From the IMG/VR virus record IMGVR_UViG_3300025267_002170: a DNA stretch of 64,000 bases. One strand, written 5' to 3'. Under the pieces are notes generated by a model. It was not told where the DNA came from. It worked only from the letters and a program-made list of their open reading frames with translations, and made no database searches. The stretch is from a virus (taxonomy: Duplodnaviria > Caudoviricetes). Below are positions 7,246 to 56,099 of the stretch, piece after piece. The position numbers and the translations under genes are program-made. The first letter of the stretch is position 1, and each line of letters opens with the position of its first letter.

Positions 7246-7260
7246 CACTTACCCCATATA

Positions 7261-35520: not shown

Positions 35521-35523
35521 CCT

Positions 35524-38667: not shown

Positions 38668-39236
38668 GGTTCTTGCCTTTTTAAAGAAATGTGACTATAT
38701 TATACTATACCCGCAAACGGAGAAAAGCATGCGATTAACGGTGGCTGAAAAGAAGTTTATTCGAGCGACATGGGAACTGTATAATGATACGTATATTGCC
38801 GTGGCCTTGAACAAGGTGCGGCAGGAGCGAGGAGAGAGGAATCTATCAGAGCGAACTATCGCATCTTTTAGACTAAGAGAGGGGCTGCGGAGGAACATGC
38901 GGCGCGAAGGAGGCTAGTTTAGCTGATACTATCAAAAATATTTTTGTCAATTGCGTTTGAACCCCCCCGACTTTCTACCTATTTTACGCAAGTAATGCAC
39001 ATTGACAAAAAACTACCCTATAGTCTAGTCATAGTCTGTTTCCGAGTCGTAGTCCTAAGTCTAGTGTCACCAAGAGGTTATATCCTAGTACTACTGCCGC
39101 GACGTAACTCCTTTGATACCAACGACTTACGTCTATTTCGACAAAATTCTGGAATTCGTGGCCGTTGGGCTGTCATCTGCCGATACTAGTCAGTAGAATG
39201 GGGCAGTCAAGCAACAAGGTAGTAGAGGAACGACAC

Positions 39237-39296
39237 ATGGAGACGCTTTTCTTGGTGGCGCTGGTGGCAATCATTTACGAGGGACTCTTGTCATAG
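39237..39296 (+). CDS. 19-aa hydrophobic micropeptide METLFLVALVAIIYEGLLS
   Basis: GAGG RBS, downstream of a cassette promoter (TAGAAT). Confidence 0.55.
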   Translation: METLFLVALVAIIYEGLLS

Positions 39297-39339
39297 GCGC
39301 CGATTGACCGGGACACAACAGACACGCAAGGGGCACGCA

Positions 39340-39438
39340 ATGCAGACCATTATCATCACCACCATGCTGGCCATGATTCTCGTTCCGATTATCACGCTGG
39401 GCGTAATGGACGCCATTAGGCATCCGTGGGGCAAGTGA
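39340..39438 (+). CDS. 32-aa membrane peptide, paralog of the 45635 ORF N-terminus
   Basis: MQTIIITTMLAMILVPIITLGVMDAIRHPWGK; AAGGGG RBS. Confidence 0.65.
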   Translation: MQTIIITTMLAMILVPIITLGVMDAIRHPWGK

Positions 39439-39636
39439 AGAGACGCGCGACGTAACTCCTTATCTGACAAGGGGTTAGGGCGCGGCCGTACTGCGCGAAC
39501 GTAACCCCTTTGATATCAACGACTTACGTCGATTCCAACAAAATTCCAGAATAGGTAGCCATCGGGCTATGCAAGCGTCGATACTAGTCGGTATACTGTA
39601 GCAGTCAAGCAGTCGTACTTACTAGGGAGACGAGAC

Positions 39637-39696
39637 ATGGACATCGTTACCATCGGGCTGGCAGCCGCTCTACTCTACCTCGCTCTCAGCCACTAG
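39637..39696 (+). CDS. 19-aa hydrophobic micropeptide MDIVTIGLAAALLYLALSH
   Basis: AGGGAG RBS; only ORF in its cassette; paralogs at 40672, 41702, 44992. Confidence 0.65.
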   Translation: MDIVTIGLAAALLYLALSH

Positions 39697-40093
39697 GGGG
39701 CTACGCGACGTAACTCCTTATCTGACAAGGGGTTAGGGCGCGGCAGTACTGCTGCGACGTAACCTCTTACATAGCAACGACTTACATCGATTGAACGTAA
39801 CTCCTTATGTGGCAAGGGTTTACGTTCGTCATGTTATTCGGTGTAGTCTCATCCCAACTTGCCTGCTGAGCGTCTAAGATAGTCTACAGTCAGCGTCAGC
39901 CGGGGGCCGAGACAAGCTGTTATCTGATAAGGGGTTACGACTACGCACTACCGCGCGAACGTAACTCCTTTGATACCAACGACTTACGTCGATTCCGACA
40001 AAATTCCAGAATAGGTGGCTTGTGGGCTTGTGCCCTGTCGATAAGTCACTATAGTAGAGGACATACAACACGCAACACACACAAGGGTAGCAC

Positions 40094-40309
40094 ATGACAC
40101 GCACACGCCAACTGACTCACACCGAAACAATCGTCGACACCAACAGCAAGGGACAGCAGTTGTGCCGTCCGAAGTACGGCTTCCGGTGGACAATCCAAGA
40201 CAGCGTTGTCGCGATTGGACGCAAGCAAGAGGGTTGGACAACCTGCATCTACATCGACTGCGAACGTCGCGTCCGGGCAATGTGGGATGCCCACTACGCT
40301 GGCAAGTAG
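40094..40309 (+). CDS. Hypothetical cassette protein (copy at 41124-41339, paralog at 45343)
   Basis: AAGGG RBS; TNSKGQ.LCRPKYG..WTI conserved in the paralog. Confidence 0.75.
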   Translation: MTRTRQLTHTETIVDTNSKGQQLCRPKYGFRWTIQDSVVAIGRKQEGWTTCIYIDCERRVRAMWDAHYAGK

Positions 40310-40507
40310 GATTGACGGCGGCGGCGACCTAACTCCTTATCTGACAAGGGGTTACGTCGCGGCCGTACTGCGCGAACGTAACCCCTTACGTACCAACGAC
40401 TTACGTCGATTCCGACAAAATTCCAGAATGGGTGGCCCTTGGGCTTGTGCCCTGTCGATAGTCTTAGTATAGTCAGGGTCATACACAACACTACTGGAAG
40501 GGTAAGC

Positions 40508-40672
40508 ATGGACGACACGGGAGTCAAGGTAGTAGGGCCAAGCAGGGACACCGACTGGCATCATCAGGTGTGGCAGTTCGGTTGGGATGGCTGGGAGTTG
40601 GTTGGGTCGTTCCTGCCAATGGGTTCGGCGGTGGCCTATGCTGAGAAGCTGGTCGATGAGGGGGCACACTGA
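40508..40672 (+). CDS. 54-aa cassette protein MDDTGVKVVGP (copy at 41538-41702, paralog at 44828)
   Basis: AAGGG RBS; diverged paralog of identical length. Confidence 0.8.
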   Translation: MDDTGVKVVGPSRDTDWHHQVWQFGWDGWELVGSFLPMGSAVAYAEKLVDEGAH

Positions 40673-40731
40673 TGGACGTACTCACTTGCGTAACGGCGGC
40701 GGCGTTGCTATGGGTCGCTCTCTCTCACTGA
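40672..40731 (+). CDS. 19-aa hydrophobic micropeptide MDVLTCVTAAALLWVALSH (copy at 41702-41761)
   Basis: TGATG coupling to the upstream ORF; paralog family. Confidence 0.65.
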   Translation: MDVLTCVTAAALLWVALSH

Positions 40732-42151
40732 GAATCGACCTAACTCCTTATCTGACAAGGGGTTACGGCAGCGCAGTACTGCTGCGACGTAACCTCTTTG
40801 ATACCAATGACTTACATCAATTGAACGTAACTCCTTACGTAGCAAGGGTTTACGTTCGTCCTATTATCCGGCGTAGTCTCATCCTAACTTACCTGCTGGC
40901 CGTCTAAGATAGTCTACAGTCAGCGTCAGCCGGGGGCCGAGACAAGCTGTTATCTGATAAGGGGTTACGACTACGCACTACCGCGCGAACGTAACTCCTT
41001 TGATACCAACGACTTACGTCGATTCCGACAAAATTCCAGAATAGGTGGCTTGTGGGCTTGTGCCCTGTCGATAAGTCACTATAGTAGAGGACATACAACA
41101 CGCAACACACACAAGGGTAGCACATGACACGCACACGCCAACTGACTCACACCGAAACAATCGTCGACACCAACAGCAAGGGACAGCAGTTGTGCCGTCC
41201 GAAGTACGGCTTCCGGTGGACAATCCAAGACAGCGTTGTCGCGATTGGACGCAAGCAAGAGGGTTGGACAACCTGCATCTACATCGACTGCGAACGTCGC
41301 GTCCGGGCAATGTGGGATGCCCACTACGCTGGCAAGTAGGATTGACGGCGGCGGCGACCTAACTCCTTATCTGACAAGGGGTTACGTCGCGGCCGTACTG
41401 CGCGAACGTAACCCCTTACGTACCAACGACTTACGTCGATTCCGACAAAATTCCAGAATGGGTGGCCCTTGGGCTTGTGCCCTGTCGATAGTCTTAGTAT
41501 AGTCAGGGTCATACACAACACTACTGGAAGGGTAAGCATGGACGACACGGGAGTCAAGGTAGTAGGGCCAAGCAGGGACACCGACTGGCATCATCAGGTG
41601 TGGCAGTTCGGTTGGGATGGCTGGGAGTTGGTTGGGTCGTTCCTGCCAATGGGTTCGGCGGTGGCCTATGCTGAGAAGCTGGTCGATGAGGGGGCACACT
41701 GATGGACGTACTCACTTGCGTAACGGCGGCGGCGTTGCTATGGGTCGCTCTCTCTCACTGAGAATCGACCTAACTCCTTATCTGACAAGGGGTTACGGCA
41801 GCGCAGTACTGCTGCGACGTAACCTCTTTGATACCAATGACTTACATCAATTGAACGTAACTCCTTACGTAGCAAGGGTTTACGTTCGTCCTGTTATCCG
41901 GCGTAGTCTCATCCCAACTTACCTGCTGGCCGTCTAAGATAGTCTACAGTCAGCGTCAGCCGGGGGCCGAGACAAACTGTTATCTGACAAGGGGTTAGGG
42001 CGGCGCAGTACGGCCGCGACGTAACGTCTTACGTAGCAACGACTTACAACTACTTTGGAAAAGTTTCTGGAATTACTAACGACTGGGGTTGTGCTTTGCC
42101 GATATAGCACTATAATGGGGGAGTACAACACAAGGACAAGGGGCTACTACA

Positions 42152-42244
42152 ATGTGGGCTATCTACCTGATGATGGGCGTGCTGGGCTTCTGCTGGCTGA
42201 CGCTTCTGCTGGACATCTTCGTACCCGGTTGGGACCGTGACTAA
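42152..42244 (+). CDS. 30-aa membrane peptide (paralog at 45067-45150)
   Basis: MWAIYLMMGVLGFCWLTLLLDIFVPGWDRD; shared LLLDIFxPGWD. Confidence 0.7.
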   Translation: MWAIYLMMGVLGFCWLTLLLDIFVPGWDRD

Positions 42245-42442
42245 CGAAACGCGCTAACTCCTTACGTGACAAGGGGTTACGTCGCGGCCGTACTGCGCGA
42301 ACGTAACCCCTTTGATACCAACGACTTATGACTAATTAGATAAAATGCCAGAATGGGTAGCATATAGGTGGGGGTTGTGGTTGACTTGTGTCGATAAGGT
42401 ATATAGAATGGGGGCATACAACACATGGCAAAGGGCAACACT

Positions 42443-42754
42443 ATGACCAACAACAATCACCGCAGCCCGCACAACTGTGCCTGTGCCAAACTGTCCTGTG
42501 CATCATTCGTGGCGGGCAACCAATGCTTCCGCTGCCAACAGGTTGACAACCGGAAGGCCGGTATCCGGTTCAATGCTGAGATGGATGAGTGGAAGGCGTG
42601 GTTCGCTTGCAACCGCAAGCGGGTGAAAGTTCACGAGGCTGGTCCGAACTACCGCCCGTCCGCTTCGACGGATGCGGTTGTCTGGCCGGGCGGTGGTTCG
42701 GTTGACTATGACCCCGGCGGATGGTATACTCACGAGCACGAACGGACTAGCTAA
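42443..42754 (+). CDS. Cys-rich hypothetical cassette protein
   Basis: AAGGGC RBS, CxC...CxxC; promoter TTGACT at 42381. Confidence 0.65.
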   Translation: MTNNNHRSPHNCACAKLSCASFVAGNQCFRCQQVDNRKAGIRFNAEMDEWKAWFACNRKRVKVHEAGPNYRPSASTDAVVWPGGGSVDYDPGGWYTHEHERTS

Positions 42755-43074
42755 TCAAGCCAGCTAGAGAGACAGCACAATGACAATCGCACGCTTCACC
42801 AACTACATCCGATACAGCACCACTTGCCCCGATGGTATCACCACTGCACGATGGCAGGGTATGCTGACATGGGCACGCACTAACGGATACCTCTAATCGA
42901 CGTAACTCCTTACGTGACAAGGGGTTAGGGCGCGGCAGTACCGCGCGAACGTAACTCCTTTGATACCAACGACTTACATCGATTCCTATAAAATTCCAGA
43001 TACTTATGGCGACTGGGCTTGTGGAATGTCGATAAGGTATATATAATGGGGTTATGAGAAACAAGGAGAGCAAC

Positions 43075-43329
43075 ATGAAAGTATCAGAAATCGAATTGAC
43101 CGGCGGTGAAATCAGGGTAGCAACGAGGACTGACGCCTATCGGGTTTTTGTCGGCAATCGTCACAATGACCAAGCATGGCATCGTGATAACTACATTGCC
43201 GAATACGGCGACGTAGAAGTGGAATACGATTCCGAGTACAACGTGTGGCGTGTTCCGGCTTTCGCTGAAGAACGGGCCGCTTACTCCGCATCAAAGGCAA
43301 TAGATTGTGCCAATTGGGGTTGCGAGTAG
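43075..43329 (+). CDS. Hypothetical cassette protein
   Basis: AAGGAG RBS; promoter with TATAAT upstream. Confidence 0.75.
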   Translation: MKVSEIELTGGEIRVATRTDAYRVFVGNRHNDQAWHRDNYIAEYGDVEVEYDSEYNVWRVPAFAEERAAYSASKAIDCANWGCE

Positions 43330-43530
43330 GACGGATACCTCTAATCGACGTAACTCCTTATCTGACAAGGGGTTAGGGCGCGGCGCGACTGCGCGAACGT
43401 AACCCCTTACGTACCAACGACTTACGTCAATTCCTATAAAATTCTAGATGCTTGTGGAGATAGGGCTTGACGTGTGCCGATAATTTACTATAGTGGGGGG
43501 TATACAACACCTAACACGGAAGGGCGACAC

Positions 43531-43722
43531 ATGCGATTCGACGACACGCGCGACAACACCACTGCAATCGAGGCCACCATCATCGAGGCCGATGCCCGCG
43601 AGGATGACGACGGCGACGACATCGAGGAAGATGACGGCCAACCGTCCGAATACGTCGAGTGGCAGGATTTCATGGGTGGCGACGATTGGGACCACGGGCA
43701 ATTCGACGACTGCGGATGGTAG
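43531..43722 (+). CDS. Highly acidic 63-aa protein
   Basis: 24 D/E versus 3 R; own promoter, RBS and terminator. Confidence 0.7.
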   Translation: MRFDDTRDNTTAIEATIIEADAREDDDGDDIEEDDGQPSEYVEWQDFMGGDDWDHGQFDDCGW

Positions 43723-43963
43723 GCCCTTCCCGGCGTGCGGGCGAACGCTCCCCAAGTTCCGGGGTCGGCCCGCCGCCGGTTTCTTTCTTTCGACCTAACT
43801 CTTTACGTAGCAAGGGGTTAGGGCGGCGCCGTACTGCCGCGACGTAACCCCTTACGTACCAATGACTTACATCAATCTCAGAAAACCTCAAGATTAGGGT
43901 TGACTATTACCGATACCACTAGTACAATCAGGCATCGCATCACAAACACGGAAGGGCAATTAG

Positions 43964-44056
43964 ATGCACGAAATGTGGTTGACTGACTTGGTGGTTTCAA
44001 TGTTCGTCGGGCTGGTCATTAGCGGCTGGGTGTACGACAAGCTCTACGAGAATTAA
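43964..44056 (+). CDS. 30-aa membrane peptide
   Basis: MHEMWLTDLVVSMFVGLVISGWVYDKLYEN; stop codon abuts the repeat at 44057. Confidence 0.6.
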   Translation: MHEMWLTDLVVSMFVGLVISGWVYDKLYEN

Positions 44057-44325
44057 CGTAAACCCTTACGTAGCAAGACGTTACGTCGCGGCAGTACCGC
44101 GCGAACGTAACCCCTTACGTAGCAACGACTTACGTCGACTATAAGATGGGGGTGGCATGGGTGTATCACGTAGTCTAGCCCGCTAGGCGTCTAAGATAGT
44201 CTACAGTCAGCGTCAGCCGTGGGCCGGGTAAATGTGGAAATAACTTGAAGATGTGGGTTGACATGTGTCGATATATCACTATAATAGGGGCATACAACAC
44301 GGGACACAAGTAGAAGGGGCAGACA

Positions 44326-44598
44326 ATGTTGAGCAGAAAAGTGTACGAGGCACAGGCAGCAATCATCAAGAAGCACGTCGCTACGGCGGGACGGGACTTC
44401 TGCTACGAGTTGGCAATTGACCTTGCCGACTACTTCGCAAGCGACAACCCGCGATTCGACCGGGGGCGGTTCTTCAAGGCGTGCGGAATTGACGGTTACC
44501 ACCTGCGACCGTTGCCGGTGGAGTACGTTGACGCGGATTGGAATTCTGAAATGGGGCGTGGCCCGGAACCGATTGGGGCAGACCTCGAACAGCCGTGA
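44326..44598 (+). CDS. Hypothetical phage protein (DNPRFDR.RF..ACG family)
   Basis: TTGACA-16-TATAAT promoter at 44258-44285; AAGGGG RBS. Confidence 0.8.
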   Translation: MLSRKVYEAQAAIIKKHVATAGRDFCYELAIDLADYFASDNPRFDRGRFFKACGIDGYHLRPLPVEYVDADWNSEMGRGPEPIGADLEQP

Positions 44599-44827
44599 CA
44601 TTTCCTTTTGTGCGGCGGCGGGTGTAAGCACCCCGACCACTGGGGACGACCCGCCGCCTTACCTAACTCCTTACGTGACAAGGGGTTAGGGCGGCGCAGT
44701 CCGGCGCGAACGTAACTCCTTTAATACCAACGACTTATGACTATTCTGAGAAAATGTCAAGATAGTAGTTGACTTATGACGATATAGGGGGTATAACAGT
44801 AATATACAACAACGGAAGGGCAAGAGC

Positions 44828-44992
44828 ATGGATGATACGGGCGTCAAGGTAGTAGGGCCGAGTAAGGACACCGACTGGGAACACCAAGTGTGGCAGTTCG
44901 GTAGCGAGGGGTGGGAGTTGGTCGGCTCCTATATGCCGATGGGTTCGGCAATTGCTCAAGCTGAGAAGTTGATTGACGAGGGGGCACACTAG
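44828..44992 (+). CDS. Paralog of the 40508 protein
   Basis: MDDTGVKVVGPSKDTDWEHQVWQFG...; followed by 19-aa peptide 44992-45051 and 27-aa peptide 45067-45150. Confidence 0.8.
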   Translation: MDDTGVKVVGPSKDTDWEHQVWQFGSEGWELVGSYMPMGSAIAQAEKLIDEGAH

Positions 44993-45342
44993 TGGATGCA
45001 TTGGTTTGCATTACGGCGGCGACGTTGCTTTACATTGCCATATCTCACTGACAGGGGAATCGCACAATGACTTTCATCTACATCGTCCTCGGGCTTGTCT
45101 GGTCGCTGCTGCTGCTGGACATCTTCCTTCCCGGCTGGGACGGCAAGTAACCGACGTAACTCCTTAACTGACAAGGGGTTAGGGCGGCGCGGTACGGCGC
45201 GAACGTAACCCCTTACGTAGCAACGACTTACAACTACTTTGGGGAAAATTCTGGAATTACTGGCGATTGGGGTATACTTTGGACGATAAGGTATGTATAA
45301 TGGGAGACATACAACACACAACACACACAAGGGCAAAACACA

Positions 45343-45570
45343 ATGACCATCACTATCACACCCAAGGCTGACCGCAACCGAGAACTGAACCACGCCGAGA
45401 TTATCGTCGAAACCAACAGCAAGGGGCAATGCCTGTGCCGACCGAAGTACGGTTGCAACTGGACAATCGTGACACCAACACGCAACCAACCCGGCATGAA
45501 CTGCGTTCACTGGATTGGTGAGGAGTTGTCAATCAAGGCACAGTGGAACGCAAACTACGCCGACAAGTAG
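45343..45570 (+). CDS. Paralog of the 40094 protein
   Basis: Shared motif; AAGGGC RBS. Confidence 0.75.
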   Translation: MTITITPKADRNRELNHAEIIVETNSKGQCLCRPKYGCNWTIVTPTRNQPGMNCVHWIGEELSIKAQWNANYADK

Positions 45571-45634
45571 GGTTGACGGCGGTTGGTGTATCAGGTAGAA
45601 TACACACTCACAACACACACAAGGGCACAACACA

Positions 45635-45886
45635 ATGACAACCACCACCATCATCATCGCCGCCATGCTCACCGCCATCATCCTGCCGATTATCATCCTC
45701 GGCATTCAAGATGCCCGGCGACACTCGTGGCGACCAAAGAACAGACACAAGCGGTTCGGCGTTGACAGTGATTACATGAAAGCGGTGAAGGGCGGAAGCA
45801 AGACACTGGCAGAGTATCACCGCAAGAGACTTGCGGAAGGGCAAGAGCGTTTGAAGTGGCGGGTGACGGTTGTTGACAACGACTAA
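45635..45886 (+). CDS. Membrane-anchored hypothetical protein
   Basis: N-terminal TM homologous to the 39340 peptide. Confidence 0.7.
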   Translation: MTTTTIIIAAMLTAIILPIIILGIQDARRHSWRPKNRHKRFGVDSDYMKAVKGGSKTLAEYHRKRLAEGQERLKWRVTVVDND

Positions 45887-45930
45887 CGTATCTGTTAGAA
45901 TACGCACTCACAATAACAGGAAGGGCACAG

Positions 45931-46206
45931 ATGGAATACCGATTCGAGAACACTGAGAGCTACCGGCTGGTCGTGAGACTTCGCAAGGCACTGAGCGAGG
46001 TGATGGAAGTTCCCAACGAGTGGCTGCCGGAATCGTATCACACGGCGAAGGGCAGCCGAACGCTCGCAAGCGTGGAGCGTGAATTCGACAAGCGGCAAAC
46101 GGAGAAAGCCGCAAGCGACCACGAACAGCGGAAGGCAAGCAAGGCAGAATTGATTGAAGCGTATCGCTCACGGGTGGAGCGGGGCGAGGAGTTGTTCGCA
46201 GCATGA
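45931..46206 (+). CDS. Hypothetical protein
   Basis: AAGGGC RBS; followed by coupled 48-aa hydrophobic ORF 46203-46349. Confidence 0.75.
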   Translation: MEYRFENTESYRLVVRLRKALSEVMEVPNEWLPESYHTAKGSRTLASVEREFDKRQTEKAASDHEQRKASKAELIEAYRSRVERGEELFAA

Positions 46207-46503
46207 GAAACGAATTCCAGAAGCGTCTACGGGTTGCCAGAATGTTTGACTGGGCGTTTATTGCTCTATGGATTGTGTGGATATGCTTGGCGGCGGCGGG
46301 GTCTATTGCGGTTCTTATTGGTTGGGTTATGGGGACGGTTTTTGGGTAAACGACGTAAGTGCTTATCTGACAAGGGGTTAGGGCGGCGCGGTACGGCGCG
46401 AGCGTAACCCCTTATATAGCAACGACTTACGACAATTCCTATAAAATTATGGAATAGGTGGCGACTGGGCTTGTGGAATGTCGATAGTCTACTATAATGG
46501 GGG

Positions 46504-47118
46504 ACATACAAAACAACGCCGCTCCCTATCGGTGAAGTGAAAGCCTAACCGCCATCGACTGGGTATAAACGCGGCACAACACTGGGAGTAGGGCCGGGAA
46601 ACTGGCAGCCGCTCCACCTTACAAGCTCTTTTACAATTGAAACAAGTGAAGCCCTTGTAGCTCGGTGGCATGAGCATGGCGGGTTTTCCCTGATAGCGAC
46701 TGTACAATCGCTGGGGGAATTCTGACAGCCTTAGTATCGTGGCGGGCCTGTGTTTGTACGAATACAGGTGGGTGTGTACACACCTCATTCACCCCGTAAA
46801 CGTTCTAGTAGCGTTTGGTTCGAATCCCACCTTGGGCAGCACTTTTATGTAGCCGGTGTATACCGGTGAACAACGAGGCGTCAGAGCGGCTCAGCCGTAA
46901 ATCTAGCCACGCCTACAAACCCGAGAAGGGTGGAGATAAATAGGGCTAGTACCTTACATGGAACGGGATTTAAACTTAGGGATATCCGACAGTCCCAACC
47001 CCTTGCGAGGATTAACCCGGCAGCGAGCAGACGTGCTTGTACGGGGGGAGACTGGTTGGTCTCGAATCGCAAGTGACTGTTCCGGGGTGACCAACCCCCG
47101 GCGTTTCATTTCTCTTTA
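46504..47118 (+). ncRNA. Candidate large structured ncRNA(s) with tRNA-like segment
   Basis: Promoter (TATAAT 46493), no credible ORF, boxA-like GCTCTTTTACAA, many hairpins, D-arm and T-loop-like motifs, terminal hairpin. Confidence 0.55.
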
Positions 47119-47709: not shown

Positions 47710-47834
47710 AAGGAGTGGTAAAATGCCACCTGAATGGTTGACACCGGGGACATTTCTGATAGGATTGATATTGCTGGCAGGGGTATGCTGGCTGGCTGAT
47801 AAACTTGGGTGGTGGAAATAGAAGGGGCAGAAGA

Positions 47835-48284
47835 ATGACCGACAGGGATATGCGTATCTGTGACAACAAGGGGTTCCAACTGGACTTGCCTAACGGCGTG
47901 ACGGTTTCCGTCCAGTTTGGTCCGGGCAACTACTGCGACAGCGACGTGTCGAATGCCGCCTTCGACGCCCCGAAAAAGGCGATTGACGGCGACGACCATT
48001 GGGGTTCCAACACCGCCGAGTGTGCTGCCTACATTACTGGTAGTAACCTGTCGTGGGTTGCCGTGCCGGGATTCACCGGACCTATCGGTGAGGATGACAG
48101 CGACACGTTCTACGATGACGTTTGTGGACACCTCAATGTTTCGCAGGTGCTTGACTTCATCAATGTGGCCTCGCAACTGGACGCTACCAAAAACCCAAAC
48201 AGCCTCGGCAACAAGATGATGAACCATCTGTCCAAGCAAGACCCGTTTTCTGACGAGTTTACCTCTAACTACAGGAACAACTAG
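47835..48284 (+). CDS. Hypothetical phage protein
   Basis: NKGFQL...NG.TVSVQFGPGNYC motif; AAGGGG RBS. Confidence 0.75.
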   Translation: MTDRDMRICDNKGFQLDLPNGVTVSVQFGPGNYCDSDVSNAAFDAPKKAIDGDDHWGSNTAECAAYITGSNLSWVAVPGFTGPIGEDDSDTFYDDVCGHLNVSQVLDFINVASQLDATKNPNSLGNKMMNHLSKQDPFSDEFTSNYRNN

Positions 48285-48444
48285 ATGAAGATTCTGCGTA
48301 AAGGCGACAAGTTCAAGAAGGTTGCCGATTCCACTCACGCCGACAATCAGGCTTTGAAGACTCTGCTGGGCGAGGGGTGGAACTACTGTGACCGCTCAAC
48401 GTGGAAACGGGAATGTCGTGACAAGGGAAAGAAGGTGGAAACCG

Positions 48445-48732
48445 ATGGCAAGGCGTAGAATCATTAAACGCAAAGGCGTGGACAAGTTCTCTGGAAGAAA
48501 GATAAAGCCAAAAAACGTCATTGCTGTGGGGTTTGAGATTGTCCACAAAATTACCGATAAGAGGTGGTTGACAATTTCAAACGTAAGACCACAAAACCTG
48601 CTCGACCTTATCTCCCAATATAACCGGGGACGGCATGGTTGGGGACAGGTGCGAGTTAAAGTAAAAGCGTACAAGGAAGGCTGTAAAGTAAAACGGAGCA
48701 AAACAGGTGAGGTACACGGCATTGTTAAATGA
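48445..48732 (+). CDS. Basic hypothetical protein
   Basis: Follows 57-aa ORF 48285-48458 in the same unit. Confidence 0.6.
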   Translation: MARRRIIKRKGVDKFSGRKIKPKNVIAVGFEIVHKITDKRWLTISNVRPQNLLDLISQYNRGRHGWGQVRVKVKAYKEGCKVKRSKTGEVHGIVK

Positions 48733-48965
48733 TAGAGTAGCGTTGTGGAGTTGGCTTGTGTTTGCTTTCCTTTGTATTGTGTTGACCTAAGTTGTTCTAT
48801 GACAAGGGGTTATGGCAACGCCCTAGCGCGCCGACGTAACTCCTTACTATATAACGACTTACGACTATTTTGCTAAAATCTACGAAATAGGTGCAGCGTG
48901 GGATTGACCTATGACGATATACCCTTATAATGGGGGATAACAAGGGCAAACGAAGGGGATAGACA

Positions 48966-49175
48966 ATGGCTATCAGAACTCATCACGGCGAGTTGGTTTG
49001 GAATCAGGACGGGGTCGAGATTGTTTGGGTTCCCCGGTACAGTGTGTACGAAGTGTGGGCGCCAATTGCGGATGGCCCGGATGATTTCCTGATGGACATG
49101 ATTGCCGACTGTGCGGATGAGGCGGATGCAATTTTCTACGCAGAACTGTTTATTGGTGAAGGGGCAATTGACTGA
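48966..49175 (+). CDS. Acidic hypothetical protein
   Basis: Promoter TTGACC-16-TATAAT; AAGGGG RBS. Confidence 0.7.
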   Translation: MAIRTHHGELVWNQDGVEIVWVPRYSVYEVWAPIADGPDDFLMDMIADCADEADAIFYAELFIGEGAID

Positions 49176-49438
49176 TGAAATTGACTGACAATACCTTGCG
49201 AGCAACCTGTCGTATCTGTGGAGATACACACGTCCTGAAAGTGAACGACGACGACGTGTTTCGTTGGCAAACCGGGACACTGATTCAGGATGCTATGCCG
49301 TACCTGTCTACGGATGAGCGGGAAATTCTCATCAGCGGAACGTGCGGGAAATGTTTTGACAAGATGTTCGGGGAAGACCCCGTAGGCGATGCGGAGACGG
49401 ATTACAACATCGAATTCGTGGAAGGGGAAAAAGAATAA
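49175..49438 (+). CDS. Zn-finger-like hypothetical protein
   Basis: CRIC...IQDAMPYLS.DEREILISGTCGKC. Confidence 0.75.
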   Translation: MKLTDNTLRATCRICGDTHVLKVNDDDVFRWQTGTLIQDAMPYLSTDEREILISGTCGKCFDKMFGEDPVGDAETDYNIEFVEGEKE

Positions 49439-49629
49439 TGCAAAACCTACATAGAGCTATCGTGAGCATGCCAAGCGACAGGAACGCGAGACCTATTGAC
49501 AACTTCGAGCATCTGACGATTTCATACGGGCGTCATTCGTGGGCGGTAAAAGTGCCGAAGGGCGAATTCGCACAGGCTCATCTTGAGGTGACCCGGAAGG
49601 CCGAACACGATGGGATGGAAGACGACTAA
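49438..49629 (+). CDS. Hypothetical protein
   Basis: Coupled to upstream ORF; stop codon lies inside the repeat at 49625. Confidence 0.6.
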   Translation: MQNLHRAIVSMPSDRNARPIDNFEHLTISYGRHSWAVKVPKGEFAQAHLEVTRKAEHDGMEDD

Positions 49630-49798
49630 CTCCTTATGCGACAAGGGGTTAGGGCGGCGCCCTACTGCGGCGACGTAACCTCTTGCCACACAACGACTTA
49701 CGACAATCTGATGAAAACAGTAGAGGGCGGGGTTGACAATGACGATATATACTATAGAATGGGGGAGTTGAAACAAACCACTTTTGAAAGAGGGCGAC

Positions 49799-49966
49799 AT
49801 GGAAAAGCACGAGTTGAAGTTCGAGCAGGAGAAGGAAACCAAGAACACCGTCCGGTTTCAGGAAGTAGTCGAGGACGGTAGTCAGGCTGTGATTGGACCT
49901 CTGTATGTCCAGAAGCACGCCCTCGGCAGCACTCCCCCGAAAACCATCACGGTGAGCATCGGTTGA
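49799..49966 (+). CDS. Small hypothetical protein
   Basis: KETKNTVRFQE...LYVQK; promoter TTGACA-16-TAGAAT. Confidence 0.7.
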   Translation: MEKHELKFEQEKETKNTVRFQEVVEDGSQAVIGPLYVQKHALGSTPPKTITVSIG

Positions 49967-50027
49967 AAAATCCGAAAAAAAATCCAGTGAAACCTTGACC
50001 CCCGGCGATTCGGGAGTATAATGAGGA

Positions 50028-50580
50028 CATGAGAGACAAGGAACAAGAAATTGTAACTCGTCTCTCAAAGAGAAGGGTGGACGGCTCTAAGTGGTCGTTC
50101 CCACAAAGAGTATCCTTCTCGCAAAAGACGGTTGTCCAGTTAAAGCCTTCTTCGCACAACCAGAGATAACTTCGGTTATCAATGAACGTGACAGGATTGG
50201 TAAGACAGTTTAGGATTTACGGGGTAAGGCTTACCCCGCGACCGTTTTTCACTTTCTTTGACAACACGAAACAAACACTGACAGGGTAGCTCCCTGTTGG
50301 TAGGACGGTGGCCGAACACCAAAGCTAGGCAGAGGTGGTAAGGCACACATCTAACAGAGTATGTCCAAATGGATGAGGCTGTTAGAAGTGGTACAAAGTA
50401 GGGAAGCCCTTCACAGGGTGGACATATCTGTCCCCGAAAAGTTGTGGGTAATACATAAGTCCCACCCGTCCATATACAAAGCAAGTGGGTTTGGAGTTGC
50501 CCTTTCCTCAACCTCTTGCCTCAAAACCTCACTAAGTAGTATGATGCTAACGCATGGAAGCACTTAGTGGGGTTTTTTCG
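50028..50580 (+). ncRNA. Candidate structured ncRNA(s)
   Basis: Promoter 49995-50022, cUUCGg hairpin, several perfect stems, boxA-like TTCTTTGACAA, terminator. Confidence 0.55.
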
Positions 50581-50919
50581 TTGGACATAACTCCTTGTTT
50601 AGCAAGGGGTTATGACCGCGCGGTAGTGCGGCGACGTAACCTCTTGCCACACAACGACTTACGTAAAATGCCAAATGTAGCTAATGCTGCACTAGACATT
50701 TTGCCGATATAGAGTATAATGATAGGCATGACTTTGAAGGGGCGGCGAGCTTTGAGAGACGTTCTACCCCGCTCGCTCTCGGCTCGTCGCCCCTGTGTCT
50801 CACCTGTTCCAGTCGGCTGAAGGTCTGGGATGGTCTGTAGTCAGCGAAAACGTTAAAGTTAGGGGTTGACAAGGGCCGATAATACCTTATAATGGGGTAG
50901 ATTGAAAAGGGAAATTGAT

Positions 50920-52106
50920 ATGCTGCCGACTGTTGAAGAAAAGACCATCATCGCCACGCTTGGAAGGGCACAGGCTCGTCATAAGATTGATGAGTACACC
51001 CACGCGATGATGACGAAGATGCACAAGGAAAACCGGCCCCTGCTGGAAGCGTTGTGTCTCATTCTTAACGAGTTCAAGTTGGACGAGCGTTCCACCTGTC
51101 ATGCCATGACCATGATGAGCCTGATGTACGACTGCCTGAATACACAGGGTGAGACTAACGAATTGCACGAGATGTTCGGAGAAGAGGGCGAGACCGATGA
51201 CGCTTAACGAATTGTGGCAAACTGCCGTGGAACACTTCCCGGCATGTCATATCACAGAAGATATTGAGGGGGAAATCGTGATTAGTACGGGCTTGATGTG
51301 GGAAGCCCCGCCGGGGTATGCCGGAGTCGGACCACAGAATGTTCCGCTTCACGCAAGGGGAAATGTTGAACTTAGGGAAATGAACGAAGGGGATTTACCA
51401 GATGTTGAGAACTGAAGACGTTGCACGGGTTGCTAGTGACATGGGGCTGGTGCTTGACAAGAGAGTGACCATTCAGGACGGCATTACCTATCGGTATACG
51501 CTGTATGACAATAACGAGTTTGTAGAGGACTTTTTCGAGACGTTGGCACAGGCGTGGAGTTACATCTACTATTACGATGAGGAACGGGAATATGAGAATC
51601 TCAGGCCCAACATTGAATCAGCTTAGACCACTTTTGACTAAGGCGTTGCAAACTGGTGCGGAAGTTTCCTTTATGTACCACGACAAGCGACGTAGCGGCC
51701 CACTGAAGGATTTTGGTTGGGGTCCGCAAGGCCCGTTTATCACAATTCAGGATTCCAAGTATGTGAATTGTCCCGAGGGAGATATTCCCCATACCGAAAT
51801 CAAGAGCTTCTCACTTGTCAAGATGAGCGAGTTGCGAGTTGAGCAGTTTGTGGGGACTGAATAATGGATAATGTACGTATCCAGAACAAAGACATATATA
51901 TACAGGGCGGTACTAAGGGAACCAACAAGGATGCGAGGGGTTCTGCTGACGATGTTCTATCAAAAGAAAGAGCGCCCAATGTAGAACTTTACGCGGAAAG
52001 ATGGGAGCAGGGACTAAATATTTGGACGGGTGAACCAATGACAGACATAGCGTTGACAGATTGGAAAAACCAACAGAAGCGACAGCGACGTAAACGCTTG
52101 TCCTGA
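50920..52106 (+). CDS. Operon of five small hypothetical proteins (50920-51207, 51197-51415, 51402-51626, ~51592-51864, 51864-52106)
   Basis: Overlapping start/stop codons after TTGACA-16-TATAAT at 50866. The fourth ORF has an SH3/WYL-like pattern (VSFMY...R...IKSFSL.KM). Confidence 0.65.
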
Positions 52107-52268
52107 CAGAGGTTAGGGCGGCGGCCTACTGCGGCGACGTAACCTCTTGTTATATAAGGAGTTATGGCTACTTGGTCATAATTCCTTTTTTTGTGAAGTA
52201 CGTCGGTTGACATTGCCGATATATACAGTAGAATGGGAAGCGTAACACAGAAAAGAAGGGGTAACAGA

Positions 52269-53051
52269 ATGTTGAAGTGGTCGAAAGCAAACGCGAAAAC
52301 GGAACGGCTCAACGAGAGTTGCTGGGCAATCGCCAAGTATCTTGACGACGGGCGGAAGGTTTACAGCCTCGACCTGCTGTCGGGCTATTCGTGCCCGTTT
52401 GCGGAAGCGTGTCTCTCGAAAGCGGTTGTCGGTGACGACGGCAAGCGGACAATTAAAGACGGTCCCAAGAATGAGTTCCGTTGTTTCTCCGCATCGCAAG
52501 AGGTGCAGTACACCAACGTATACAATCTCCGCAAACACAATTACGACACCCTGAAGGAAAACCAAGACGACTGGCCGTTGATGTATCTGGAATTGTGGAA
52601 GTCGATGCCCGAGAATGCCGGGATTGTTCGGATTCACGTCGCCGGGGATTTCTTCAACGAAAACTATCTCAAGGCGTGGATTCACCTCGCGAATAATCGA
52701 CCGGACGTTCTGTTCTACGCCTACACCAAAAGCCTGAAATATTGGGATGCTCTGAGAAGTGAGATTCCCGAGAATCTGGTGCTGACGGCGTCATATGGTG
52801 GGCGGGATGACTGGATGATTGAGCATTTTGATTTCCGGTTCGCTCAAGTGGTGTTCTCCGAAGCGGAAGCGGTGGACCTCGGATTGTTCATCGACCACGA
52901 CGATTCCCATGCGGCGAATCCGACGTGGCGGGACGAGAGTTTCGCACTGTTGATTCACGGGACACAACCAAAGGGAACGGAAGCGGCGACGGCGTTGAAG
53001 GCTCTCAAGGGCAAGGGGAGTTATTCTAGAAAGCAAGGGGCGACGGTATGA
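52269..53051 (+). CDS. Gp88-like phage protein (Cys motif, radical-SAM-like)
   Basis: SCPFA..C...C, VRIHVAGDF, FYAYTKS, P.NLVL..S. Confidence 0.7.
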   Translation: MLKWSKANAKTERLNESCWAIAKYLDDGRKVYSLDLLSGYSCPFAEACLSKAVVGDDGKRTIKDGPKNEFRCFSASQEVQYTNVYNLRKHNYDTLKENQDDWPLMYLELWKSMPENAGIVRIHVAGDFFNENYLKAWIHLANNRPDVLFYAYTKSLKYWDALRSEIPENLVLTASYGGRDDWMIEHFDFRFAQVVFSEAEAVDLGLFIDHDDSHAANPTWRDESFALLIHGTQPKGTEAATALKALKGKGSYSRKQGATV

Positions 53052-53467
53052 CCTGTATCAACTATGATAAGCGGCTCTATGTCTACTGGAATCTCCACAA
53101 ACAAACGTGGAGTGTGAGACAGAGCGGCAAGGTGTTGTGCCACACCGACTATATCCACCTGAAGGATTGTCGGTTTCTGGTAGGCAAGGCTGGACAGGCA
53201 CGGGTGCGGCGTGAGGGCAAGAAGAACGTCCACGCTGGCGTATCGGGCTACCTTGCAATGAATGCAGAGGTTCCCACCTTCAAAGCCGACCGCGATTGTT
53301 TTGTGATGTATAACCCGTACAAGCATAATACGTTCATTCAACGTACTGGCGTGTGTGATGACCAGTATCCTATCCCGGTGACGGAATCGGAATGGGCTAA
53401 GATGTATGTTCTGGAAGGTAAGCCCACGGTGCGAGCCATAAACCACAATATAACGCAACCCGTGTAA
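53048..53467 (+). CDS. Conserved phage hypothetical protein
   Basis: VYWNLHK..WSVR..G.V...RV..E.KKNVHA.V.G...YNPYK. Confidence 0.75.
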   Translation: MTCINYDKRLYVYWNLHKQTWSVRQSGKVLCHTDYIHLKDCRFLVGKAGQARVRREGKKNVHAGVSGYLAMNAEVPTFKADRDCFVMYNPYKHNTFIQRTGVCDDQYPIPVTESEWAKMYVLEGKPTVRAINHNITQPV

Positions 53468-53768
53468 TAGCAAGGACTTAGGGCCGCGCCCTAGGGCGGC
53501 GACGTAACCTCTTGTCATATAACGAGTTACGTCGATTAGGGTAAATTAGGCCCAGGTTTCACCTTATCCAGCCGGGTCGGTGGACATGGTGGTAGTCAGC
53601 ATAGTCAGCATAGTCAGGTAGTCGGGCGAATCTGGAATTCTCAAAAAACCTTGCAGAAATGACCTTGACCCTGCCGATAACACTTGTATAATGGGAGCAT
53701 AAGCAGTTGAGGAATAAGCGGGCGAGTGACCCGCAAACATTTTGGCCCCTAACGGGAGAGTTGAGACC

Positions 53769-54125
53769 ATGGCAGATGCGAAGAAGAGTGGCGAGAAGCG
53801 TGTTCGGGTTGCGGACGAGAACTTTGTGGTTGAGTGGGTGCGAGTTGCCGCCCTCATGGACAACGATGGGAAGCGAATCGGAACGCATCAGATGATTGCC
53901 GAATCGCTTGGCCTGCAAGAGACCAGCGTCATCCAGCGGCAGTACGCTGTCAACCGCAAGCTGACCAGCGGCGGGTTTGAGAAGTTGCCGAAGTTGCCGA
54001 CCGAAGGACGGCAGAGCGTCAACATCGCGGAACTCGCCAAGCTCGCTGGACTGAAAGCACTGGCAAAGGCCGACGAGGCCGACGCCAAGGCCGAGGCCGA
54101 CGCCGAGGCCGAAGCCCAGTCGTAG
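53769..54125 (+). CDS. Putative HTH DNA-binding protein
   Basis: HQMIAESLGLQETSVIQR; own promoter and terminator. Confidence 0.55.
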   Translation: MADAKKSGEKRVRVADENFVVEWVRVAALMDNDGKRIGTHQMIAESLGLQETSVIQRQYAVNRKLTSGGFEKLPKLPTEGRQSVNIAELAKLAGLKALAKADEADAKAEADAEAEAQS

Positions 54126-54146
54126 CGAGCGAAACGCTCCTACTGT

Positions 54147-54194
54147 CGGGGCGGTAGCAGGTTTCTCACGGCCTGTTACCGCCCCGATTTTTTT
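54147..54194 (+). terminator. Intrinsic terminator
   Basis: tcggggcggtagcagg...cctgttaccgccccga followed by T7. Confidence 0.8.
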
Positions 54195-54398
54195 GTCTTC
54201 CAAGCGATTGACGTAAGTCCTTGCGTGGCAAGGGGTTGCGTCCGCGCGGTAGGGCGCCGTCCTAACCCCTTATCTGACAACGGTTTACGTCTATTCTGAT
54301 AAACTTGGCGTTTCCTGTGAAGTGGGCGGTTGACTTTGGACGATATATAGAGTACACTGGGTGAGTTGACACACTTCTTTTTTTGAAAGGGTCAGAAC

Positions 54399-55622
54399 AT
54401 GACCGACTACACGACGCTGCGACCGACCGACGACACCAAGGACGAGGGGGCATTCGTGCAGACGCTGCAAGGGCAGACCGGCGCGGGATTCCAGAAAAAT
54501 ACGCACGTCCACAAAGACTGGTGGGCACAGACGGAATCGTTCGAGGATGGACTCGAAGCGTTGGAGCAGGGCATTGCAGAACGCGAGGACGTTATGGTTC
54601 CCCGTTCGCAGATTACTCCCGCCGTCAATCTGGCTGGTGAGTTCGTCATGCAGTTGGCAGACGGGCGTGAGTTCAAGCCAACGCAACACGCCGTGAACCA
54701 GTTTGGGGTGGCTACTTTCACAAGTACGTTCTTCCTCAACTCGCTGATGACCAACCCCGAGAAGAACAACGGGCAGGAGCGATTCCAGCGGGACGAACAG
54801 GATGCCGACACGCTGGTCGCCGTTTGCGAGAATGCGTTGCGGCGGGTGGATGCGGACAAGAATTTCCGTCTCCGCACTTATCAGGACGGAACGCTCCGTG
54901 CCTTCCTCACTGAGAAGTACGCTCCGATTGACAACCGCTGGTATCTTGAGCAGTTGAGCAACATCCTTCCGGGCGGTCGGCTTTCCCACTGGCGTGGTGA
55001 TGCTGACACCATTTTTGGCAACGTGCTTCTGCCTGATACGATTATCGACTACGGGCAGGATGACGACACCGATTACGGCGGGATGCTTTCAATCGGCAAT
55101 TGCGAAATCGGAACGCGGCGTGTCTCTCAGATGCCCAGCATCTTTCGGGCTATCTGCCTCAACGGTTGCATCTGGGGACAGACCAAAGGGAAATCTATCT
55201 CCAAGGTTCACCGTGGCACGATTGACCTTGACGGGCTGGCTTCCGATATCAGGAAGAATATCGAAGCTCAATTGCCGCTGCTGCCGGATGGCATCGAACG
55301 GTTCCTCGGCATCAAGGTTCATACCTGCGATGAGGTTTCCATGAAGAATCTCATCGGCGCGGTTTGCACCGACAGGAAGCTCCGCAAAAAGGAATCGACT
55401 GAGGTTCTGACTCAGTGGGTTCAGCATGAGCGGACTGACCGTAACCTGTTTGGAATCGTGAACGCGGTTACCCGCGCGGGTCAAACTCTGGACAACACCA
55501 GTTGGGTCAAGTTCGACGAGATTGGTGGCGACCTGATTGGAATGACCGAGAACCGTTGGGACGCTCTCAAGAAGCGTGCCGATACTTACACTGAGAAGGA
55601 AATCGAAGCGGTTTTCGTCTAA
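54399..55622 (+). CDS. DUF932-like phage protein
   Basis: RAFLTEKY..IDN, ISxGNCEIG-like motif, FRAICLNG...H.G, LFGIVNAVT. Confidence 0.65.
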   Translation: MTDYTTLRPTDDTKDEGAFVQTLQGQTGAGFQKNTHVHKDWWAQTESFEDGLEALEQGIAEREDVMVPRSQITPAVNLAGEFVMQLADGREFKPTQHAVNQFGVATFTSTFFLNSLMTNPEKNNGQERFQRDEQDADTLVAVCENALRRVDADKNFRLRTYQDGTLRAFLTEKYAPIDNRWYLEQLSNILPGGRLSHWRGDADTIFGNVLLPDTIIDYGQDDDTDYGGMLSIGNCEIGTRRVSQMPSIFRAICLNGCIWGQTKGKSISKVHRGTIDLDGLASDIRKNIEAQLPLLPDGIERFLGIKVHTCDEVSMKNLIGAVCTDRKLRKKESTEVLTQWVQHERTDRNLFGIVNAVTRAGQTLDNTSWVKFDEIGGDLIGMTENRWDALKKRADTYTEKEIEAVFV

Positions 55623-55716
55623 ACGTGGACGGCACAGCATCGGAGGCTTTCGCCTTAGTATTGTGTGCGTGCTTTGTCATTAGTGGCTTAGTCGTACTTC
55701 TCAAAGACTGACCCCA

Positions 55717-55748
55717 ACCCCCCCGCAACGTGCGGGGGTTTTTCTTTT
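55717..55748 (+). terminator. Intrinsic terminator
   Basis: acccccccgca-acg-tgcgggggt followed by a T-run. Confidence 0.75.
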
Positions 55749-56099
55749 GGTATGTATAAGAGTTGACGTAAGTCCTTATCTGACAAGAGGTTACGTCCGC
55801 GCGCTACCGCGCCGACCTAACCCCTTTGACACCAACGACTTACGTCGATTCGCCGGAAAGCAAGCATCTTCCAGTAGCGAACTGTACTAACGCCCTATAC
55901 TAACGTAGTCTGGTCAGATTCGAGGCCGAGCAAGTAGTGTCTTTGCTAAGCAAACCAGATACGGTTAATTTAAGGTAGTCAGCACTTTCGCGTATCCGAG
56001 TGTATATTAGTGCATAGTCGGGGTATTTCCTAAGCCATCCAGATTGGTCTAATGTTGGGTAGTCAGCACTTTTACGGTAGTCAGTTATACTAACCTAAG

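Follow-up and report, generated by a model that had tools for sequence, protein, structure and literature searches.

A repeated double-dyad element in the early region of an uncultured phage

We analyzed a 64,000-nucleotide stretch of a marine tailed phage (IMG/VR record IMGVR_UViG_3300025267_002170; hereinafter the window, meaning the whole stretch at its full length) and found that its early region, at 39054-55844, is punctuated by 26 co-oriented copies of a 78-base pair (bp) element consisting of two inverted-repeat sites on either side of a GC-rich linker. The element is a regulatory cassette resembling the promoter-early stem-loop (PeSL) units of T4-type phages with a new anatomy, and is not an integron; we give about an even chance to the reading that it is a conserved protein-binding upstream module of early promoters, which secondarily drives the shuffling of gene cassettes.

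Repeat finding combined with manual registration yielded a gap-free, in-register alignment of the 26 elements, each laid out as site A (11-bp arm, 7-bp core, 11-bp arm), a 20-bp GC-rich linker and site B (again 11-7-11), the whole 78-mer forming a pseudo-palindrome. The distance from the start of site A to that of site B is 49 bp in 26/26 copies; hence, the fixed geometry and shared orientation that an earlier note had described from the letters of this DNA hold throughout the array. The arm consensus proposed there, CGTAA-N4-TT, is likewise borne out by 56 elements from three strains (the window and two close strains, B and C, described below), none of which departs from TAA and TT in any of its four arms. 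A weight-matrix scan (≥12 bits, + strand, whole 64-kb window) recovered 55 sites, which comprise the 26 pairs and lone third sites at 39796, 40826 and 41856, the same three that had been listed earlier; all of them lie inside 39054-55844, and a degenerate pattern had 35 matches in the window as against 0.00 in 100 shuffles. The TA that had been placed at the center of the linker is present in 24/26 window copies and so stands for this strain, but strain B has GC there and strain C either CC or GG. The features of the array are as follows:

39054-39131 (+): element 1; site A degenerate, linker AT-richer; orthologs in strains B and C
39451-39528 (+): element 2
39709-39786 (+): element 3; lone site C is next
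39796-39824 (+): lone third site C, copy 1; starts 38 bp past site B
39911-39988 (+): element 4; degenerate A-left arm
40328-40405 (+): element 5
40739-40816 (+): element 6
40826-40854 (+): lone third site C, copy 2
40941-41018 (+): element 7
41358-41435 (+): element 8
41769-41846 (+): element 9
41856-41884 (+): lone third site C, copy 3
41971-42048 (+): element 10
42253-42330 (+): element 11; promoter at 50 nucleotides (nt), one helical turn farther
42901-42978 (+): element 12; recombined with element 13 in population variant L108, cassette 12 deleted
43349-43426 (+): element 13
43794-43871 (+): element 14; terminator-like hairpin 43761-43783 just upstream; promoter 28 nt past site B
44057-44134 (+): element 15
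44662-44739 (+): element 16
45155-45232 (+): element 17
46354-46431 (+): element 18
47119-47196 (+): element 19; terminator-like hairpin 47082-47101 upstream; promoter 18 nt past site B; both site A arms of the GTYG flavor
48786-48863 (+): element 20
49625-49702 (+): element 21; gene 49438-49629 has its stop codon in the invariant TAA of the A-left arm
50586-50663 (+): element 22
52089-52166 (+): element 23
53454-53531 (+): element 24
54212-54289 (+): element 25; canonical terminator 54145-54188 and T-run immediately upstream
55767-55844 (+): element 26; canonical terminator 55720-55738 and T-run immediately upstream
39706-42065 (+): 1030-bp unit in ~2.3 tandem copies, three elements per copy; missing from strain B, polymorphic in population contigs

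The elements are phased with early promoters and are not terminators

Downstream of site B there is a conserved A-rich stretch followed by a promoter of one family, with a TTGAC-like -35, CGATA in the spacer, a TATAAT-like -10 and GGGG, as in this example:

39989-40070 (+): promoter module with A-rich UP-like stretch (ATTCCGACAAAATTCCAGAAT), -35, CGATA spacer, -10 and GGGG; the same family occurs after most elements

The earlier note had placed promoters after most elements, and indeed a sigma-70-type promoter follows nearly every one, with its -35 hexamer usually starting 39-40 nt past site B; a promoter scan found 39 promoter-like sites as against 15.9 expected. Measured from dyad B, the distance to the promoter falls in the window into classes of 44, 54-55, 64-66 and 76 bp (with 24 bp once in a related strain), and in relatives it is 43 and 53-54 bp. 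These classes step by ~10.5 bp, the center of B coming to lie near -67, -78, -89 and -99. At the first lone site C (39796-39824), the right arm probably overlaps a -35-like TTTACG/TTACGT that is followed by an extended -10 (TGTAGTCT), and in relatives, too, the right arm of site C overlaps a -35.

Gene calling showed the cassettes to consist of small genes, many of 19-110 amino acids (aa), whose stop codon, in most cassettes checked by eye, precedes site A by 0-19 nt. Terminator-like sites are overall not enriched in a scan of the window. T-tailed hairpins do occur immediately upstream of elements 14, 19, 25 and 26, those before 25 and 26 being canonical GC stems with a clean T-run. The terminator scan called none of the elements themselves, and none of their stems has a U-tract behind it. 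As the hairpins are separate from and upstream of four elements, the element is not itself a terminator; we rejected the intrinsic-terminator reading on this ground together with the missing U-tract.

The dyads are conserved in a clade of uncultured phages

A nucleotide search with the array and a tblastn search with the 407-aa protein encoded next to element 26 each had no match among 50,697 phage records, and the window-type pattern was found neither in IMG/VR nor in the genomes of 185,579 bacterial and archaeal species, so that the phage has no cultured relative and the element no host copy; the idea that a matching host motif might reveal the host thus led to none. Similarly, the sigma-like gene neighboring the array, used as a probe of IMG/VR, gave no confirmed relative. 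The 407-aa protein, in contrast, retrieved 48 IMG/VR loci (45-57% identity, contigs up to 167 kb) from a clade of uncultured phages with complete genomes of 161-167 kb, and 34 of these loci carry 3-12 copies of TAA-N4-TT-N7-AA-N4-TTA.

In these relatives the dyads are typically paired at a distance of 53 bp, the linker measuring 24 bp in 46/49 doublets, and there is approximately one doublet per operon. They are followed by the UP-like aaaatattttttcaaga and then TTGACA..CCGATA..TAGAAT, i.e., a promoter of the same type as in the window, and the promoter-proximal arm AACGACTTA is identical in relatives and window. The two complete genomes with terminal repeats have their doublets restricted to one 16-20 kb region. 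The relatives' linkers are neither palindromic nor alternating, and hold an asymmetric GC box (ggggcgggccgcg) that is G-rich on the promoter strand in 30 of the 49 doublets and present as the C-rich reverse complement in 15. Relatives without TAA-type sites retain the promoter type. A regulatory or nucleoprotein role, which the earlier note had also entertained, fits both this conservation of half-sites across the clade and the helical phasing with the promoter.

A site read in DNA fits better than an RNA fold

One alternative is that the element works at the level of RNA: the read-through transcript would fold, as a long central hairpin or as three hairpins, into an RNase III-type processing site, a 3′-end stabilizer or a weak terminator. 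By this means it would keep the mRNAs of the cassettes separate, comparable to the early RNase III sites of T7 or to the stem-loop portion of a PeSL. We consider this unlikely on balance. Most elements start 0-19 nt past a stop codon with no other terminator, and hence would be transcribed; copies from the window and strain B fold better than shuffles (z-scores -2.1 to -4.9); on the sense strand, G-U pairs outnumber A-C pairs in site A; and plain C/G hairpins occupy the same position in relatives lacking the sites. The dyad symmetry of the linker center, moreover, is preserved through CG-to-GC changes. Under either the three-hairpin or the long-hairpin model, ~75% of cells are paired. Across lineages, however, the z-scores run from -4.9 to +0.8, the minimum-energy folds differing from lineage to lineage and the strain C copies (+0.8) folding no better than shuffles. 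Variation in the N4 positions of partner arms is uncompensated: at site B, 46-51/53 sequences leave three of the four N4 pairs unpaired, and site B shows the opposite bias to site A, an excess of A-C. None of the Rfam 15 covariance models matched an element, the sole hit being a sub-threshold manA match elsewhere. The uncompensated N4 positions, the mirrored G-U/A-C bias, the discordant folds and the lack of an Rfam match led us to reject a single conserved RNA fold. Further, no stem is followed by a U-tract, four copies have a separate terminator ahead of them, and helical phasing with the promoter has no rationale in RNA. The occurrence of the GC box in both orientations (in strain C and in 15/49 of the relatives' doublets) is also hard to square with a strand-specific role. 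Taken together, the phasing, the indifference of the GC box to orientation and the placement of some copies behind terminators favor a protein site in DNA that depends on the face of the helix. As in operator or activator arrays, the half-sites are conserved, arm variation is uncompensated and there is a helical phase to the promoter, with few independent classes.

A DNA-level role could alternatively be structural or topological, in that the element might extrude as a cruciform, form Z-DNA in its (CG)n version, or bind a nucleoid protein or gyrase like BIME/REP/RIP elements, and thereby buffer the supercoiling generated by ~26 strong co-oriented promoters. The pseudo-palindromy of the entire 78-mer is consistent with this, as are the palindromy that the linker retains while its sequence is replaced, the alternating CG of strain B linkers, the GC box occurring in either orientation and the dyads of unrelated sequence found at the same position in other relatives; BIME/RIP elements, too, are made of two inverted palindromes around a linker. 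However, the invariant TAA/TT and the arm AACGACTTA shared with distant relatives argue for sequence-specific recognition over structure alone. Moreover, the distant relatives' linkers are neither palindromic nor alternating, the arms are short for spontaneous cruciform extrusion, and the relatives lack an HU/IHF gene. We hold this explanation to have a low probability, comparable to that of the RNA-level one.

Cassettes are exchanged at the element centers

Scanning metagenome contigs with the pattern returned nine stretches, seven of which are the same array in other strains, the other two (L007 and L008) having no element. Strain B (L001-L003, L005, L006 and L009) is ~88-96% identical to the window, and strain C (L004) ~77-89%. 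When cassette order is compared between strains, as the earlier note had advised, it differs, with junctions inside elements: strain B reads c1 c2 c3 c5 c4 X c13 c14 c15 c12 c16, without the 1030-bp tandem repeat and without cassette 11, and strain C has rearrangements different from those of strain B. As both order and content differ between close strains, the fixed order that would have spoken against reshuffling is not what we find.

At least six junctions lie inside an element, between core A and core B, such that the upstream gene keeps its site A and the downstream promoter its site B; in these junction elements the left flank and site A are 100% identical to one window element, and the core of site B and the promoter match another. 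For instance, a population contig from the window's own strain (L108) lost cassette 12 when element 12 recombined with element 13; the crossover falls between core A and linker position 8, and the parental cores are different (ACGTGAC in element 12, ATCTGAC in element 13). Two other junctions lie outside the 78-mers, at ~25 bp of promoter/5′ untranslated region homology and at a 6-bp microhomology. Judging from the junction sequences, the shuffled unit is site B, promoter, genes and site A, and its joints behave like homology-driven events.

The linker evolves differently from the rest of the element. Between orthologous elements of the window and strain B, identity is 97-98% in the outer arms, 89-94% in the inner arms and 86-91% in the cores, and 37% in the linker. 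Nearly all of the ~20 strain B elements share the alternating-CG linker gcgcgcgcggccgcgcgcga together with the same B-left arm; linkers of the window strain are varied and centered on GTAC or CTAG; and those of strain C are gcgcgcgcgcccgcgctcga and its exact reverse complement, with the inner arms flipped along. Such replacement over tracts of ~20-40 bp bounded by the cores would be accounted for by short-patch gene conversion between copies, which would include conversion in antiparallel alignment, as the palindrome permits.

A bolder proposal is that the element center is actively processed, i.e., that a novel nuclease or recombinase cuts there, or that hairpin-templated repair copies it. 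This would account jointly for the homogenization of the linker in ~20 copies of one strain with cores 11 bp away kept, for its flip/flop and for the at least six junctions, and, if true, would make the array a dedicated exchange device for self-promoted early-gene cassettes, a phage counterpart of the integron built on a new enzyme; we nevertheless deem it improbable.

We rate somewhat lower still the odds of a dedicated integron- or shufflon-like site-specific recombination, in which an enzyme of an unrecognized family, or a host enzyme, would excise and reinsert B-promoter-genes-A units. This explanation can draw on the variable cassette order and the at least six junctions between the two cores, on the resemblance of the 11-7-11 geometry to the sites of tyrosine recombinases, on a central dinucleotide that is uniform in each strain and different between strains (TA, GC, CC or GG), and on the linkers being homogenized in strain B and flipped in strain C. 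Profiles for PF00589, PF00239 and PF01797, however, had no hit in five site-bearing relatives (G001-G005; two complete, three partial), the PF00589 search being positive in 14/14 control genomes and the other profiles likewise in controls. A walk of ~97 kb rightwards from the array, through ENA contigs carrying identical proteins and thus along the phage's own lineage, had no integrase, resolvase or transposase among its Pfam hits, and none of these families appeared in the larger open reading frames (ORFs) of the window that were scanned, in agreement with the earlier statement that no recombinase is present in it. The walk did recover RecA, PDDEXK_1, two SSB, DnaB, primase, a split Pol III alpha, three further sigma-like genes and a large glycan gene block. 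The RecA homolog (364 aa, L096:16731-17825, ~45-50 kb right of the window) offers a simpler route to exchange. Also contrary to site-specific recombination, the cores of the recombined elements 12 and 13 differ, the fresh L108 deletion has its crossover left of linker position 8, off center, other junctions fall outside the elements, and the relatives' sites are single per operon and phased with promoters. Of the integron-like reshuffling system put forward in the earlier note, what stands is that the elements delimit promoter cassettes whose order varies through junctions in elements. Its recombinase-driven mechanism is unsupported, given that we found no recombinase in the five relatives, among the own-lineage Pfam hits or in the scanned window ORFs, that every cassette is self-promoted, that exchange occurs at the element center and not at an attC-type G|TT, and that some junctions are outside.

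Finally, a selfish non-autonomous repeat of the REPIN/MITE type that spread through the gaps between early genes is very improbable: its inverted-palindrome doublet and the within-strain homogeneity of its center recall REPIN populations, but the Y1/RAYT transposase (PF01797) was not found in G001-G005, the copies keep to one orientation and one 17-kb region, are never gapped and have a fixed position relative to promoters, their outer arms and cores are inherited with the flanks and not with the center, and the pattern occurs in none of the 185,579 species genomes.

A candidate trans-acting factor

Searching for a protein that might recognize the dyads, we considered the product of a small gene to the right of the array:

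56507-56776 (+): 89-aa gene; candidate trans factor by co-occurrence only

Among all early proteins of the window, this product alone tracks the sites. A profile search found its family in 29/34 loci with at least three sites as against 2/14 loci with 0-1, and in G001-G003 but not G004. The homologous gene in relatives sits behind a promoter carrying site C, which by analogy would be the usual layout for an autoregulated regulator. It has no Pfam family, the Atlas gives unnamed viral clusters only, and its structural model (predicted local distance difference test score 77; one helix and a three- to four-stranded sheet) has no fold match in the PDB at E ≤0.001. We treat the 89-aa protein as a candidate, a lead and not a finding. 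Phylogenetic profiling of complete genomes (G001-3 vs G004) left 254 candidates and is not discriminating because G004 is too distant. A helix-turn-helix-looking 118-aa protein (53769-54125) was dropped, having no homolog in site-bearing relatives.

The arms had also been said to fit the consensus of integration host factor (IHF). Exact matches indeed exist at 39514 and 47133; they make up 2/55 sites, and the consensus also occurs at two unrelated places in the window. As no HU/IHF gene was found in the G001-G005 relatives, with control genomes positive, we regard the fit as incidental. The earlier suggestion to look for a recombinase or IHF/HU gene thus turned up neither in the five relatives, and no recombinase among the own-lineage Pfam hits.

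Proposed mechanism and its weak points

From the anatomy, its conservation in the clade, the phasing, the junction positions and the absence of known recombinase families from the sequences searched, we infer protein binding, a direction of regulation and a recombination pathway along the following lines. The 78-bp element would be the upstream half of a composite early-promoter module that reads, in order, gene stop or terminator, dyad A, GC-rich linker, dyad B, A/T-rich UP-like stretch and sigma-70-type promoter (TTGAC..CGATA..TATAAT). Dyads A and B would be bound by a dimeric DNA-binding protein, either phage- or host-encoded, probably as two dimers bridged across the linker, and the bound protein, always on one face of the helix, would influence RNA polymerase at the early promoters. 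As the sites lie at ~-67 to -140, clear of the core promoter, activation or enhancement would be somewhat likelier than repression, and site C, as it overlaps a -35, would repress that one promoter. The near-identical element center (inner arms and linker), present in 26 same-orientation copies, may double as a homology patch, at which homologous recombination, gene conversion and slippage could duplicate, delete and reorder cassettes, the phage having a RecA homolog of its own.

Several observations weigh against a protein-binding promoter module. The phasing classes are few and partly come from paralogous promoter families, such that our rough chance estimate for the phasing (~0.002 to 0.02) is not rigorous. 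The spacing from A to B differs by 4 bp between lineages (49 vs 53), which means that helical phase between the two dyads is not kept. In some relatives without the sites, this position is taken by C5-6/N5-7/G5-6 dyads flanking a similar GC box, which a requirement for a hairpin or cruciform explains more simply than a co-evolving protein. The co-occurrence of the 89-aa family with the sites has exceptions and is phylogenetically confounded, and this family, the sole candidate binder by co-occurrence, has no recognizable DNA-binding fold in its predicted structure. Lastly, the strain-specific replacement of the linker in all copies, at 37% identity between orthologs where the arms have 94-98%, is not obviously explained by ordinary recombination.

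If the promoter-module reading is right, a clade of abundant uncultured phages from marine and other environments with genomes of ~150-167 kb controls its early promoters via one module of a double dyad and a GC box, and a handle on early regulation is gained without a cultured member, in the form of a 78-bp probe, a phasing rule and one candidate protein. The linker, being strain-specific, homogenized and invertible, provides a clean example from nature of tracts of 20-30 bp evolving in concert. As the array breaks short-read assemblies, the early-gene content of such phages is under-sampled: at 39-56 kb it is the break point of these assemblies, most public contigs with array proteins being 2-5 kb and long contigs stopping at the array edge.

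Other features of the region and the phage

The window is a portion of a large tailed phage. On its left it holds a late module, encoded on the minus strand, with terminase, portal, major head protein and a >2400-aa tape measure; plus-strand transcription begins at ~38.6 kb, after this part. The terminase has a best identity of just 24%, to Bacillus and Microcystis phages. The G+C content of the array region is 47-55%, as against mostly 36-45% around it, with two 2-kb stretches of the left arm at 47-50%. The tape measure (1-7248, -; >2416 aa, running beyond the window) contains an ADP-ribosyltransferase exoenzyme domain (PF03496) at residues 1658-1733, and the interval from the packaging module to the array contains auxiliary genes (33557-37245, -) for an ornithine cyclodeaminase, a GDP-mannose 4,6-dehydratase and a MotA/ExbB-like protein. 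The phage encodes at least four small sigma-70-like proteins (38013-38543, -; L093:10001-10594; L095:13429-13917; L098:13309-13782), the gene for the first of which sits right at the left edge of the array. In the own-lineage contigs, the PDDEXK_1 nuclease gene is just upstream of the two-part Pol III alpha gene, with an RNase T-like exonuclease between the halves.

Within the early region, the CGATA spacer and the GGGG after the -10 are common to early promoters over 39100-56480 (e.g., 44258-44285, 47215-47242 and 50866-50893), and this signature is kept in distant relatives, including dyad-less ones. Hydrophobic micro-proteins of 19-32 aa are the products of many cassettes; each has a Shine-Dalgarno motif, and several are paralogous (e.g., MDIVTIGLAAALLYLALSH and MDVLTCVTAAALLWVALSH; ORFs at 39237-39296, 39340-39438, 39637-39696, 40672-40731, 41702-41761, 42152-42244, 43964-44056 and 45067-45150). 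Homologs of the mycobacteriophage genes gp88 (PF17338) and L5 gp82 (PF25735) are adjacent at 52269-53467 (+); among the IMG/VR relatives they occur mainly in dyad-less loci (6-8/12, vs 1-2/34). The sub-threshold manA RNA match (RF01745) is full-length, at 50279-50475 (+), with 25.2 bits as against a gathering score of 55.2 (E = 0.0055).

A second repeat system is based on TAGTC. Five TAAGATAGTCTACAGTCAGCG blocks occur at 39858-39909, 40888-40939, 41918-41969, 44175-44226 and 47336-47387, three of them directly after the lone sites C; three tandem TAGTCAGCA units follow element 24 (~53540-53580), and three 50-nt repeats precede the 89-aa gene (55939-56362). In relatives, '...caatacagtcagcga' is found in the ~170-nt leader of the homolog of that gene. 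These repeats could be a conserved leader, a small RNA or a second protein site.

Comparison with known systems

By its defining properties the element is neither part of an integron nor a member of the REPIN/BIME family nor an intrinsic terminator. Like integrons, the array is a co-oriented series of small cassettes with imperfect four-box palindromes, and some arms (CCTAAC / GTTAGG) resemble the attC RYYYAAC / GTTRRRY, others not fitting it. Unlike in integrons, no IntI was found (PF00589 in the five relatives, the own-lineage walk and the scanned window ORFs); the cassettes are self-promoted, whereas those of integrons are promoterless and share the common Pc promoter; the junction lies at the element center with half traveling with each neighbor, whereas the integron crossover is at the G|TT of the R′ box and attC goes with the upstream ORF; and the element is a rigid 78 bp, as opposed to the variable length of attC, with the relatives' sites single per operon.

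The BIME/REP/RIP elements of Escherichia coli and REPINs are intergenic doublets of inverted palindromes with a defined linker, whose copies evolve in concert and for which binding of nucleoid proteins or gyrase and mRNA stabilization have been proposed as roles. The 78-bp elements share with BIME/REP/REPIN sequences the intergenic doublet with a linker and the concerted evolution of copies, but are confined to one region and one orientation, phased with promoters, without a RAYT in the relatives searched, and absent from the 185,579 species genomes. In place of the dispersal of REP/BIME/REPIN sequences over extragenic space, they occupy 39054-55844 in the window and a ~16-20 kb region in complete relatives.

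Upstream activator arrangements at promoters include the Fis sites and UP element of rrnB P1 and the class I sites of CRP. Among phages, the p4 sites of phi29 are regulator sites upstream of promoters (PMC1904284, PMC3100819). The elements described here resemble these systems in that inverted half-sites with A/T contacts lie far apart ahead of early promoters, and in having more than one site in each promoter region, a dependence on the face of the helix and an UP-like stretch before the -35; they differ in their unrelated motif, in the use of the same double site at 26 consecutive promoters and in that the sites double as recombination patches.

The closest likeness is to the PeSL cassettes of T4-type phages, which are repeated units of promoter plus palindrome in a hyperplastic ORFan region, and whose modules coincide with the indels and replacements between close relatives, credited to homologous recombination (PMC2839356, PMC4122927). 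Mini-circles that arise when adjacent units recombine are another trait of PeSLs. Both PeSLs and the 78-bp elements belong to short intergenic units, present in many copies, in which a palindrome accompanies a strong sigma-70-like early promoter; both cluster in a region rich in small ORFans and have breakpoints between relatives at the units (some of them here in the promoter part). In contrast to PeSLs, the present elements belong to an unrelated large siphovirus-type phage with no sequence relationship; they consist of two 11-7-11 dyads with TAA/TT around a GC box, with fixed spacing and promoter phasing, and not of a simple terminator stem-loop; where the PeSL stem-loop is an effective terminator, they have no U-tract and in four copies a separate terminator; and their linker evolves in concert and flips. 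The PeSL idea, that repeated regulatory cassettes drive modular shuffling, is thereby extended past T4-type myoviruses, with evidence from nucleotide-level junctions and population variants.

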